From positions 12,825 to 76,824 of the forward strand of contig MNES01000084.1 of the NCBI GenBank assembly GCA_001917815.1: a stretch of DNA of 64,000 bases, in the 5' to 3' direction. This stretch comes from Chloroflexi bacterium 13_1_40CM_65_17 (GTDB taxonomy: Bacteria > Chloroflexota > Dormibacteria > Dormibacterales > Dormibacteraceae). The position numbers and the translations under genes were made by a program. Below are positions 51,627 through 60,947 of this stretch, piece after piece (position 1 is the first letter of the stretch; each line of letters opens with the position of its first letter). The notes below the pieces were generated by a model. That model did no database searches. It was given only the letters and a program-made list of their open reading frames with translations, and was not told the origin of the DNA.

Positions 51627-55868
<4,242 letters not shown>

Positions 55869-55886
55869 GTTGTCCCTCTTCTCCTA

Positions 55887-56029
55887 CTATTCCGCCGAGT
55901 CTTCCCCGAGCTCTTCGCGCTCGAGGCTGATACCGAGGTCCAGCGGGATCTCGGGGATGTCGGAACCCCACGAAATCTGCGATTTCGCGGGGACCCCGTG
56001 TCTTATTGAATGCCGCGAAGAAGACATCT

Positions 56030-56033
<4 letters not shown>
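55887..56033 (-). CDS. 48-aa ORF coupled to rpoB that carries a duplicate of the RpoB C-terminal 24 residues
   Basis: ATG overlaps the rpoB TGA (GAATGA). Translation [48 protein letters not shown]. The 72-nt duplicate differs from rpoB at 10 sites, all synonymous. Confidence 0.65.
55966..55992 (-). repeat. 12-bp-arm hairpin inside the rpoB-rpoC spacer ORF (related to 37974-38000)
   Basis: Minus-strand RNA CCCCGCGAAAUC-GCA-GAUUUCGUGGGG, 12 bp including one G-U. The plus strand would carry an A-C mismatch. Confidence 0.7.
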
Positions 56034-59569
<3,536 letters not shown>

Positions 59570-59798: not shown

Positions 59799-60947
59799 AT
59801 GCCCGACTGGAAGGCCTTCCGCCACCAGTTCCCACTCCTCGACCGCTATATCTACCTGAACGCCTGTTCGCTCGGTCCTCTCCCCCGGCGCGGCCGGGCC
59901 GCCCTCGAGCGCTACGCCAACGATTGGGATACGAAGGGCACGCCGGTCTGGTACTCCGACTGGCTCCCGCTCCTGGAACGGCTCCGCACCCGGGTCGGCG
60001 CGCTGCTGAACGCGCCCCGGGGGTCGACGGCGATCGCGCCATCCGTGTCGGTTGCCCTCACGACGCTCGCCTCAGGCCTGCCGCTCCCGCCTGGTCGCAA
60101 CAAGGTCCTGATCGGCGAGCTCGACTTCCCCACGATCGGCCACCAGTGGCTGTCGCGCCCCGAATTCGAGGTCGAGTTCGTGCCCAGCGCCGACGGCATG
60201 ACCATCCCCCCGGAGGCTTTCGCCGAACGCATCGACCGGCGGACCGCCCTCGTGGCGACGACCCACCTCTTCTACACGACCGGCTACCTGCAGGACGTCC
60301 GGGCGATCGCGGACGCCGCCCACACGGCGGGCGCCCTCTGTCTCATCGACGGCTACCAGACCTGCGGCTGCGTGCCCATCGACGTGGACGCCATGGGTTG
60401 CGACGCCTTCGTCGGCGGGTGCCTCAAGTGGCTTTCCGGCGGTCCGGGCACCGCCTTCCTTTACGTGAGGCCGGAGCTGATCCCAGACGTCAGGCCTCAC
60501 GGAACCGGCTGGTTCGCCACCCGCGATCCGTTCTCGTTCACCCTGAGCGAGCTTGATTTCGCCGACGATGCCCGGCGGCTGGAGACCGGTACGTGGGCGA
60601 TGGCCTGCCACTACGCCGGCCTGGCCGGATTGGAGCTCATCCTCGAGGTCGGCGTCGAACACATCCAGGAGCGGCTGCGCGACCTCACCGATCGCATCTT
60701 GGAACGCTGCGAGGCCGCCGGGGTCAAAACTTTTACGCCCCGGGAGCGGGAGCGGCGCTGCGGGATCGTGACCCTCGAGTCGGCCCACCCCGAGGAAGTG
60801 GAGCAGGCTCTCCACAAGGCCGGCGTGATCGTCGATTCGCGACCACACCGCGTGCGCCTCTCACCTCATTGGTGCGTGACCGAATCCGAGCTCGAGCGCG
60901 GGATGGATATGGTCCTCGAGCAACTGGCCGCCGCGACGCTTACTTGA
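59799..60947 (+). CDS. class V (kynureninase/cysteine desulfurase-like) PLP-dependent aminotransferase
   Basis: 382 aa. [14 protein letters not shown] fits a PLP-lysine region of the kynureninase-like type. Confidence 0.75.

Follow-up and report, generated by a model that had tools for sequence, protein, structure and literature searches.

Why does an ORF of 48 codons, lying between rpoB and rpoC, end in the same 24 residues as RpoB itself, and why do the two DNA copies of this tail differ at silent sites only? The original prediction saw purifying selection on the peptide in this pattern and proposed a free acidic mimic of the beta-subunit tail, made in proportion to rpoB translation. We analyzed the locus in its window (the whole 64-kb stretch of DNA under study) and compared it with about 75 related soil-metagenome loci, which are Candidatus Dormibacteraeota-like. 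The explanation that we consider probable is that the ORF is the old rpoB end, pushed downstream by a hairpin insertion with its own replacement tail, and that it likely carries ribosomes to rpoC.

Organization of the rpoB-rpoC junction

All features described here lie on the minus strand. The rpoB gene (59569..56030) encodes a protein of 1179 aa with Pfam RNA_pol_Rpb2 domains, which is identical to NCBI OLC23506.1. The rpoC gene (51627..55868, 1413 aa) was located by gene calls and domain search and starts with a TTG at 55868. The ORF, which we read as a relay ORF, occupies 55887..56033 and runs from the rpoB stop to the native stop, as found by ORF analysis and comparison with relatives. In the sequence GAATGA (56035..56030), its ATG (56033-56031) overlaps the TGA stop of rpoB (56032-56030). 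The ORF terminates with a TAG (55889-55887) 18 nt upstream of the rpoC start. The segment 55866..55889 comprises this native TAG and another one, the ribosome-binding site of rpoC, which is rich in purines, and the TTG of rpoC. A Shine-Dalgarno-like GGGGAGG (56044..56050) lies inside the rpoB tail, 10 nt before the ATG. ORF boundaries, stop/start overlap and the GGGGAGG were all as originally described.

The genes around the site are rpoB, rpoC and a gene for a solute-binding protein. No promoter or intrinsic terminator was detected in the spacer on the coding strand, and no other gene-end duplication like that of the rpoB tail was found in the 64-kb window.

The tail is present in two copies. 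Copy t1 (56033..56104) consists of the last 24 rpoB codons as now translated, and copy t2 (55890..55961) of ORF codons 25-48. Both encode the same 24 residues. The 72-nt copies differ at exactly 10 positions, all 10 of them third-position and synonymous; t1 is followed by TGA and t2 by TAG, in agreement with the first description of the locus. Copy t1 is richer in A/T-ending codons. Synonymous changes make up 23% of the possible single-base changes in the 72-nt stretch. Ten silent differences out of ten are therefore unlike the pattern of a decaying copy. A diversity-generating retroelement was rejected as their source, since the 10 differences are not restricted to adenines of a template copy and include C, G, T and A of either copy.

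The junction is polymorphic among relatives

We surveyed the rpoB-rpoC junction in the related loci and found it either empty or occupied by one or more copies of a structured hairpin element of ~70-75 nt. Among 57 tail-matched metagenome loci, 29 were empty, 16 carried the short element and 10 the tail duplication; 1 had no element other than an inverted one in rpoC. Approximately half of the relatives sampled are without the element, and a quarter have the short form, in which the ORF has no tail. The junction types are interspersed on the rpoB tree. The length of the duplicated sequence varies: the short form repeats the last 3-4 rpoB codons (~12 nt), the form seen in the window ~81 nt and the rpoC form 18 nt. 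Repeat copies at junction insertions are 11-24% diverged. The outgroup L001 shows no duplication (the scan of genome contigs was otherwise swamped by conserved RpoB motifs). Literature searches returned no account of any ORF or element located in the rpoB-rpoC spacer.

Compared with empty-site relatives, the window contains an inserted cassette at 55962..56113, as delimited by the pairwise alignments L099/L128 and L091/L104 and by the junction survey. The cassette has the order AGC Ser codon, t1, TGA, 3' arm of a stem (P1), linker, hairpin (P2), TTCC. The rpoB reading frame now ends in the insertion-borne tail and the TGA. The empty-site relatives have the same layout of TAG, ribosome-binding site and rpoC start as the window. 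In the L099/L128 pair, with flanks ~98% identical, a clean 149-nt insertion lies before the native tail; the second difference is an extra short-form element after t2.

Copy t2 is the displaced native 3' end of rpoB. It is 0-1 nt apart from the single tail of relatives without the tail duplication in five independent pairs (window/L101, an empty site with 1 nt difference; L092/L114; L098/L106; L096/L137; L099/L104). The match to the functional tail of the relatives continues through the stop and the rpoC ribosome-binding site. Copy t1 is carried by the insertion. The Ser codon before the tail is AGC or AGT in all duplication-type loci and mostly TCN in the others; the Ser-Glu-Glu codons of t1 are AGC GAA GAA, compared with mostly TCN GAR GAR in alleles without the tail duplication. 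Within one genome, t1 and t2 differ at 8-17 sites, and random pairs of native tails at ~8.

Since t2 is native and t1 insertion-specific, both copies have been shaped as genuine RpoB tails, now or recently. Silent-only differences between two real RpoB tails are therefore no proof of selection on a free peptide. Of the original argument, the first part stands, in that the copy does not show the pattern of decay; purifying selection on the peptide does not follow from it. The intactness of t2 may reflect too little time to decay, or maintenance. A selection test on t2 was powerless, as saturation of silent sites in the 59 functional tails leaves only one variant private to t2. We also considered that the native tail might be unusually conserved at the nucleotide level as rpoC initiation region. 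This was rejected, because third-position diversity is higher in the tails (0.33-0.39) than in upstream rpoB blocks (0.14-0.31).

Two observations concern the edges of the repeats. The boundary between cassette and t2 is oddly precise, as seen in L150 and L151: these loci have identical upstream sequence, t1 and element, and diverge from t2 nt 8 onward. Mosaic single tails such as that of L134 look like products of repeat recombination.

The cassette contains a conserved RNA structure

The minimum-free-energy fold, covariation and alignments revealed two paired regions. The 5' arm of P1, GCGAAGAAGACATC (56099..56112), is rpoB coding sequence at the start of t1 and was assigned by fold and covariation. 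The 3' arm, GATGTCTTCTTCGC (56015..56028), was assigned by fold and alignments and encodes the conserved 'MSSS' of the ORF. It is followed by a linker (55993..56014) with a conserved CATTCAA motif and GGGGT (alignments A2 and A3). The P2 hairpin, CCCCGCGAAATC-GCA-GATTTCGTGGGG (55966..55992; fold and alignments), forms the conserved element core and follows the general pattern CCYCGCGAAATC-N3-4-GATTTCGYGRGG. The claim that the N-terminal half of the ORF overlaps strong RNA structure was borne out, as this half coincides in the fold with a 14-bp long-range stem and a 12-bp hairpin.

Across 12 loci, 98% of the P1 cells are paired, with one compensatory change and five one-sided changes, all of which give G.U on the sense strand. 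Compensatory P1 changes together with rpoB codons were seen in L095, L113, L118/L131 and L145. P2, with 27 nt and a 12-bp stem, is 97-100% paired across 26 loci. All element-bearing alleles possess a stem that joins rpoB coding sequence to the element. The conservation of 'MSSS' and of 'AKSQISWG' in the ORF product is accounted for by the stems P1 and P2.

P2 occurs once in the 64-kb window, and in related loci no copy was found outside the junction. In the rpoC 5' insertions it is inverted. Elsewhere, it was found as a tandem array (P0050) and in a two-copy ORF (P0051), both known from protein alone. In the short form, GAT TCC GCC GA pairs with TCG GCG GAA TC, which is its reverse complement, to form a hairpin around the stop codon. 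Apart from the wobble positions, TCN GCN GA is complementary to itself, and Ser-Ala-Glu is therefore encoded by either arm.

At the gathering threshold, Rfam models matched only an L10 leader elsewhere in the window and nothing at the junction. A permissive Rfam scan of 55780-56220 gave a best hit of 16.6 bits compared with a gathering score of 49 (E = 2.6), which is at chance level.

The ORF as a probable relay between rpoB and rpoC

A TGA with an overlapping ATG or GTG is present in 33/33 element-bearing loci and in 0/29 empty sites, which all end in TAG or TAA. The GAG codon that creates GGAGG occurs in all t1 copies and in most short-form tails. It is missing in L117-like short-form tails (L117, L118, L131, L141) and in most empty-site tails; the exceptions among the latter are those in which rpoC directly adjoins the rpoB stop. 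Short-form elements also have this overlapping ORF, here of 22-25 codons and without the tail, and in 13 of the 16 loci its end is the native TAG. In the multi-insert loci L099, L093 and L103, two to three chained ORFs bridge the distance between rpoB and rpoC.

Across element-bearing loci, each of the three frames is used to read the hairpin. This also holds for duplication-type loci alone, where two of the frames occur among those in frame with t2 and where in-frame deletions are found. Spacer indels are usually compensated, such that t2 is kept in frame and the ORF ends at the native stop. In L147 and L148, 13 t2 codons are lost and the end of the ORF is still the native stop. Frame-breaking variants exist in L096, L149, L150 and L151. 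In these loci t2 is intact although it is out of frame with the start, which means that its intactness is no sign of selection on the peptide.

As a control, we compared the three frames in 26 single-path loci. The ATGA frame ended within -10 to +55 nt of the rpoC start in 26/26, each other frame in 16/26 (62%). The other frames also end near rpoC because open frames are common in GC-rich DNA and stops cluster before rpoC. The ORF-path argument is thus supportive, but not decisive.

These data suggest the following course of events. A cassette of ~150 nt would have brought its own copy of the last ~27 rpoB codons (t1) and a TGA overlapped by ATG, further a segment complementary to the t1 start (P1), a linker and the conserved 12-bp hairpin (P2). 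It would have settled just upstream of the original tail and left t2, the stop and the rpoC ribosome-binding site downstream. A ribosome that ends rpoB at the TGA could restart at the overlapping ATG, continue through the hairpin and then through t2 in the former frame of rpoB, and terminate next to the start of rpoC. Such a relay would keep translation of the two genes linked despite the insertion. The RpoB tail at the end of the peptide would then simply result from reading the leftover in the frame that it originally had, and the 48-aa peptide is probably not itself the selected product. Translation of the ORF and its importance for rpoC are what we infer here from sequence comparison.

Other explanations for the ORF

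A neutral by-product is unlikely, but deserves the first place among the alternatives. Here, a selfish hairpin element would sit in the junction, and the ORF would be without effect or selection. The high share of other frames that end near rpoC fits such a view, as do the inverted copies in rpoC and the tandem copies elsewhere, which mobile or repeated DNA would be expected to show, and the presence or absence of the element among relatives that are ~98% identical. However, the association of the element with TGA and an overlapping start is perfect. The GGAGG-making GAG codon, the compensation of frameshifts with the ORF end kept at the native stop, the ATGA frame that reaches rpoC in every single-path locus and the chained ORFs of multi-insert loci likewise speak against it.

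A functional small protein, as proposed originally, appears improbable. The free copy of the acidic beta tail would bind at the dock of the beta tail on RNA polymerase or on a partner. In favor of this idea, the t2 peptide is invariant in 14/14 loci found by the tail pattern and nearly so in 49 protein clusters, the ORF is equipped with a start codon and a Shine-Dalgarno-like site, and spacer indels mostly leave t2 in frame. The tail contains the motif LGIxLxRxE, which is conserved in beta and aligns with the C-terminal residues of actinobacterial beta in solved structures. However, as displaced native tail, t2 needs no new selection to explain its sequence or its silent differences. The many relatives without the element or with the tail-less short form, the changing frame of the N-terminal half, the loci with t2 out of frame or truncated and the explanation of 'MSSS' and 'AKSQISWG' by the stems also argue against a peptide function. 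Conservation of ORF, frame and tail identity in related spacers, on which the proposal depended, was found in part: the protein collection holds 49 related small ORFs, and the ORF is mostly in frame with t2, next to the four frame-breaking loci. Drift of the spacer copy is likewise present to some degree, in the truncated L147/L148 and in rare amino-acid variants (P0007, P0015, P0029). What stands of the tail mimic is an ORF that recurs in relatives, with a credible start and mostly in frame; nothing requires its peptide to be functional.

The prediction had also offered a -1 shift near the rpoB stop, which would give a longer beta with a second tail copy. Relative to rpoB, the ORF indeed occupies the -1 frame, and its last 24 residues are those of RpoB. 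However, no slippery X XXY YYZ sequence is present near GCC GAA TGA. Readthrough fares no better, as the rpoB frame meets a TAA eight codons past the TGA, 134 nt before rpoC. The linker residues of such a longer beta are unconserved, their frame varies among relatives, and a doubled tail has no evident rationale. Together, we regard frameshifting or readthrough as very improbable. A bypass like that of T4 gene 60 was considered on paper and would be unneeded, since rpoB already has a complete tail and stop.

Finally, an assembly artefact or chimera is hardly credible: 72-nt direct repeats can mis-assemble from short reads, but repeat collapse or expansion is ruled out by copies that differ at 14% of positions, the identical ORF and structure occur on 14 contigs, which were assembled independently from different samples and with different assemblers, and diverged versions are found in >40 protein clusters and on a 3.24-Mb NCBI contig.

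Comparison with known systems

The relay resembles translational coupling, in which stop and start overlap (ATGA) and the downstream ribosome-binding site is masked by pairing with the upstream coding sequence. The leader ORFs of the synthetic 'bicistronic design' work in a similar way. As in these systems, the start overlaps the upstream stop and a Shine-Dalgarno-like site lies inside the upstream gene (GAATGA and GGGGAGG in the window), P1 pairs upstream coding sequence with the region just past the start, and a short ORF ends beside the start of the next gene. In contrast to them, the ORF was made by an insertion into a formerly direct rpoB-rpoC junction, reads a leftover gene end and is chained two to three times in some loci, and coupling is putative here.

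Integrative elements that target gene ends and provide a surrogate end, such as tRNA/tmRNA islands and dusA-specific elements, offer a second comparison. There as here, the gene is completed by the copy that the element carries, and its native end has moved to the other side of the element as a diverged direct repeat; single mosaic tails like that of L134 also fit. The difference is that between the repeats lie ~75 nt of noncoding RNA structure, with no integrase or recombinase inside or adjoining, and that several insertion points within 90 nt are used.

The element also shares traits with small palindromic repeats, namely REP/REPIN sequences (PMC3116915, PMC3733652), MITEs and the Rickettsia palindromic elements, which insert in frame into genes (review PMC10969869). 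It is a conserved, short and imperfectly palindromic sequence that occurs in either orientation and at times in tandem, it lies at gene ends, is co-transcribed and is tolerated in or beside coding sequence. The size of P2 falls into the 20-40 nt range of REP/REPIN palindromes. REP/REPIN sequences, which are mobilised by RAYT (Y1 transposases), have many dispersed extragenic copies per genome; in the 64 kb of the window the element occurs a single time, and its known occurrences, with two exceptions, lie at one junction. The window copy lies between GGGGT and TTCC and has no GTAG/CGTC tag; GTAG beside the stem was seen in the L117 variant only. Unlike a MITE, it shows no target duplication of fixed length (~12, 18 or ~81 nt), and its copies are 11-24% diverged. 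Unlike in the Rickettsia elements, rpoB stops at TGA before the element, which is read only in a separate overlapping ORF. The cassette instead provides a substitute end for the gene, together with a stop.

Coding palindromes are inverted repeats whose two arms each code for conserved protein sequence (PMC6649704). The Ser-Ala-Glu arms of the short-form hairpin are reminiscent of this. However, they form a 10-12 bp stem at a bacterial gene end rather than hundreds of bp in mitochondrial genes, and only one arm belongs to an essential protein.

As to the origin of the cassette, simple target-site duplication, tandem duplication, fold-back synthesis and Campbell-type integration were considered. 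Each fits some of the features and none fits all. Only tentatively, we raise the possibility that the cassette is an undescribed miniature, enzyme-less mobile unit for the junction of an essential operon, inserted precisely in the last rpoB or first rpoC codons and spreading between lineages in a site-specific or homing-like manner. Such a unit would bring a re-encoded gene end, a stem pairing with that end, and a stop/start overlap that feeds ribosomes to rpoC. With these three parts it could be harmless where almost any other insertion is lethal.

For genome scanning, the locus shows that selection on a second copy is not proven by the fact that it differs from the first at silent sites only. 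Such a pattern can also arise when one copy was recently displaced from the real gene and the other is an imported version. The rpoB-rpoC junction is among the most conserved and essential gene junctions, and it has been invaded repeatedly in an abundant uncultured soil phylum. In each case, the beta tail and the beta-prime start are retained and the path of translation is unbroken. The natural series of empty, one, two and three inserts would allow tests of how strictly beta and beta-prime synthesis must be coupled. If the cassette is actively and site-specifically mobile, it would represent a novel lifestyle of tiny elements within essential operons.

A small ORF overlaps the rpoB stop codon and repeats the RpoB tail

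In the window, rpoB (59569..56030, minus strand, 1179 aa) ends with ...GAC TCG GCC GAA TGA. The A of GAA and the TG of the stop codon form an ATG (56033-56031, minus strand), which opens an ORF of 48 codons. This ORF ends at a TAG (55889-55887, minus strand) 18 nt upstream of the rpoC TTG at 55868. The 24 residues encoded by its codons 25-48 are the last 24 residues of RpoB. We refer to the last 24 rpoB codons as t1 and to the copy within the ORF as t2. Between the 72-nt copies there are 10 differences, each silent and in a third codon position; a random single-base change here would be silent in only 23% of cases. A GGGGAGG sequence ends 10 nt before the overlapping ATG. Thus, the original prediction was correct in every detail of the ORF and the duplication. 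An assembly artefact was ruled out, because 14 contigs assembled independently carry the exact ORF, and 49 small ORFs related to it were found in the protein collection. No second duplicated gene end was found across the 64-kb window.

The window RpoB is identical to the NCBI entries of Chloroflexi bacterium 13_1_40CM_3_65_12 and 13_1_40CM_65_17 and belongs to a 90%-identity cluster of 584 members, some named Candidatus Dormibacteraeota bacterium. Among beta subunits with solved structures, those of actinobacteria align with the tail motif at their C-terminal residues. Of the species representatives recovered from the genome collection, the nearest (L001, Chloroflexi bacterium CF_45; RpoB C-terminus 84% identical) lacks the duplication, and its rpoC starts 6 nt past the rpoB stop. 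There, RpoB runs 22 residues past the tail motif (L001 3330-3434; …ESDQWATGAPRAAQNPLDSLR).

The rpoB-rpoC junction is polymorphic

Related junctions came from a scan of metagenomes in which the tail peptide was part of the key; it yielded 57 loci with the same RpoB tail. The tail is invariant and the junction is polymorphic. In empty junctions (29 loci) the tail ends at TAG or TAA, and ~10-25 nt of purine-rich spacer lead to the rpoC start; the rpoC ATG of some adjoins or overlaps the rpoB stop. The short form (16 loci) has a ~70-nt insert after the rpoB stop, which is always TGA. The core of this insert is a hairpin, CCYCGCGAAATC-GCA-GATTTCGYGRGG, and only the last 3-4 rpoB codons are repeated downstream. 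The window form, with the entire tail duplicated, was present in 10 survey loci, in addition to the window and 3 loci from other look-ups. In L112 the sole insert is an inverted hairpin within the first rpoC codons, with the first six rpoC codons duplicated, and L093, L094 and L103 carry this inverted form on top of another insert. Several loci have two or three inserts per junction. The junction types are intermingled on a neighbour-joining tree of upstream rpoB.

The inverted hairpin lies after the sixth rpoC codon in all four of these loci. The native rpoC start now begins an ORF of 31 codons (MLKLENCDHPTKSDDFAGTP...), whose TAA immediately precedes a new rpoC start, GTG or TTG, with a GGGAGGAGG site of its own. 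L103 carries two such units in tandem.

The downstream copy matches the native rpoB end

We compared t2 with the single tails of relatives lacking the tail duplication and found near identity; four of the five comparison sites are empty. The t2 of the window differs by 1 nt from the L101 tail, that of L092 by 1 nt from L114 and that of L098 by 1 nt from L106. No differences separate L096 t2 from the L137 and L139 tails, or L099 t2 from the tail of the short-form locus L104. In the four empty-site pairs the match also takes in the stop codon as well as the ribosome-binding region of rpoC. The flanks of L099 and of the empty locus L128 are ~98% identical, with a clean 149-nt insert in L099 just 5' of the native TCG GAA GAG GAC ATC. 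Compared to L128, L099 also contains a second, short-form element after t2. Its t2 differs from the L128 tail by 3 nt, of which 1 nt lies before the start of the second element, and 12 sites differ between t1 and t2 of L099. Furthermore, AGC (or AGT) GAA GAA precedes t1 in all duplication-type loci, versus mostly TCN GAR GAR in loci without tail duplication, and these serine codons cannot be interconverted by one silent change. Based on the single-tail matches, the L099/L128 insert and the t1-specific serine codons, t2 most probably is the displaced native rpoB 3' end, and the novelty would be t1, TGA and spacer together.

The insertion-type AGC/AGT GAA GAA also occurs in the empty-site alleles L134, L138, L114, L130 and L143. 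The single tail of L134 is a mosaic: its 5' half is close to t1, and its 3' half is like native tails and is followed by TAG. Alleles of this kind look like the expected remnant of recombination between t1 and t2 with excision of the element.

The silent differences had been taken as a sign of selection on the peptide. This interpretation was not upheld. Among 46 native tails, 13 t1 and 14 t2 copies, variation is almost entirely at third positions. The t1 and t2 of one genome are separated by 8-17 differences, compared to ~8 for random native-tail pairs. As their distance exceeds that of random native-tail pairs, t1 and t2 would be two old allelic lineages of one gene end rather than products of in-place divergence. 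Each copy probably is, or was until recently, a real RpoB tail under strong constraint, so that selection on the product of the small ORF is not needed to account for silent-only differences. Selection on t2 after its displacement was sought, but a single t2 variant was absent from functional tails, which left the test powerless.

L150 and L151 are identical in upstream sequence, t1 and element, diverge from nt 8 of t2 onward and have rpoC sequences that are 11% diverged. The t2 copies of L092 and L098 equal the local native tail from the first variable site. So precise a boundary is a hint that insertion may be site-specific and not a matter of ordinary homologous exchange.

The element forms conserved RNA stems

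In the window form, TGA-A is followed by a 14-nt stretch (GATGTCTTCTTCGC) that is reverse-complementary to GCGAAGAAGACATC at the t1 start. The resulting stem, P1, is part of the minimum-free-energy fold, 98% of its cells are paired (12 loci), and L095 shows a compensatory change. Five changes affect one side only; each of them yields G.U on the sense strand, a pattern that points to the mRNA as the paired molecule. The equivalent short-form stem encloses the stop codon (GGATTCCGCC-GAATGA-GGCGGAATCC or GACTCGGCCGAA-TGAAG-TTCGGCCGAGTC) and has compensatory changes in L113, L118/L131 and L145, one of which entails Ala-to-Gly in RpoB. The conserved 12-bp hairpin of the element, P2, is near-invariant, with a U-A versus C-G swap between forms. 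Translation of P1 and P2 gives the conserved 'MSSS' and 'AKSQISWG' in the small ORF, which are hence no evidence of peptide selection. No matching Rfam family and no terminator-like signal on the coding strand were found at the junction.

In L104, L115 and other short-form loci the two arms of the stop-codon hairpin are GAT TCC GCC GA and, as reverse complement, TCG GCG GAA TC. Both arms encode Ser-Ala-Glu, because TCN GCN GA is self-complementary save at wobble positions.

An ORF path leads from the rpoB stop to rpoC

All 33 element-bearing loci examined end rpoB with a TGA that a start codon overlaps, and all 29 empty loci end it with TAG or TAA. The start is ATG, except for GTG in L093, L094, L129 and the partial L097. 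The GGAGG site arises from GAG at codon 20, a codon found in all t1 copies and most short-form tails; L117-like short-form loci keep GAA. Tails of empty-site relatives mostly have GAA, and in the exceptions the rpoC ATG adjoins the stop and GGAGG serves rpoC.

The short-form ORF has 22-25 codons and ends in ...SAE* at the native TAG in 13/16 loci. All three frames are used across the hairpin, and the frame is restored downstream. In the window form, the ORF is in frame with t2 in 12 of 13 loci, which were found independently of ORF calls; its hairpin is read in two frames, one giving AKSQISWGS, and L089 and L095 carry in-frame deletions. In L096 the ORF is out of frame with t2 and ends 15 nt before rpoC. 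Further loci were reached through odd gene calls: t2 is out of frame yet intact in L149, L150 and L151, and in L147/L148 a second element replaces its last 13 codons, yet the ORF runs to the native TAG all the same. In relatives with the tail duplication the start overlap is always conserved and the frame mostly, the exceptions being the frame-broken loci above. In multi-insert loci the ORFs form chains, running from rpoB through 50 and then 24 codons to rpoC in L099, and end to end in L093 (two ORFs) and L103 (three). Measured from the rpoC start, the end of the overlapping-start frame falls within -10..+55 nt in 26/26 single-path loci, versus 16/26 for each of the other two frames. This comparison is supportive, not decisive, since stop codons cluster upstream of rpoC.

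Among the relatives, L106 and L116 (TAATG) have an rpoC start overlapping the rpoB stop, with GGAGG inside the RpoB tail as ribosome-binding site. L114, L119 and L142 have TAG or TAA directly followed by ATG and use the same site for rpoC. The insertion shows this layout, too, for its ORF.

The hairpin outside the junction and known systems

The window contains one hairpin copy, and the hairpin is confined to the rpoB-rpoC junction in all fetched loci. A protein search with its other five reading frames gave two matches. P0050, a predicted 'protein' of 146 aa, is a tandem array of at least 8 copies with a period of 42-44 nt and rotating frames; P0051 has two copies, and both are entries of the protein collection. 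Thus, at least one genome carries the hairpin at a site other than the rpoB-rpoC junction.

The cassette resembles small palindromic repeats such as REP/REPIN, MITEs and Rickettsia palindromic elements (PMC3116915, PMC3733652, PMC10969869). Its parts have familiar counterparts in coding palindromes (PMC6649704), in stop/start-overlap coupling with a masking stem and in integrative elements carrying a surrogate gene end. However, it has no target duplication of fixed length, no GTAG/CGTC tag and no integrase, and the host protein is not read through it. By defining features it is a member of none of these systems. The cassette occurs in several forms and in chains, and its combination of a structured rpoB-rpoC insert, re-encoded gene end, coupling stem and ORF path appears undescribed in the searchable literature.

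Other features near the operon

A gene for a 382-aa class-V aminotransferase/kynureninase-like protein (59799-60947, plus strand) lies between rplL and rpoB on the opposite strand and breaks the usual rplJL-rpoBC arrangement; L081, L083, L087 and L088 share this layout. A ribosomal protein L10 leader (RF00557, 61870-62006, minus strand, 51.4 bits) upstream of rplJ is the only Rfam match at gathering score within the window. As expected for coding DNA rich in GC, very long antisense ORFs lie opposite rpoB (56006-59563, plus strand, 1185 aa) and rpoC (52239-55115, plus strand, 958 aa); they give no indication of genes.

A proposed translational relay across the insertion

The loci combine an insertion polymorphism, a t2 matching the native tail, a stop/start overlap, a covarying stem and a continuous ORF path. 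The best-supported reading of these sequences is a translational relay across the insertion. Alternatively, the ORF may be an unselected by-product, which agrees with the mobility of the element and fits in part. Such neutrality leaves the perfect association of TGA and overlapping start with the element, the ribosome-binding site and the compensated frames unexplained. The proposed free mimic of the beta tail finds weak support in a t2 that is intact nearly everywhere and mostly in frame. However, no observation requires a functional peptide. Several speak against one: the short form has no tail, the N-terminus varies in frame, some t2 copies are intact though out of frame, a truncated copy exists, and about half of the relatives lack any element. 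A longer beta subunit made by a -1 shift or readthrough is very unlikely, as the rpoB stop has no slippery site and the rpoB frame meets a stop soon after TGA.

For the relay, we infer that the ORF is translated and that its translation is important for rpoC. A ribosome translating the end of rpoB would open P1, terminate at TGA, restart at the overlapping AUG and unwind P2. It would then read the leftover tail in the old frame and terminate at the native stop adjoining the rpoC ribosome-binding site. In this way the relay would keep the coupling of rpoB to rpoC, which the empty junction has by proximity.
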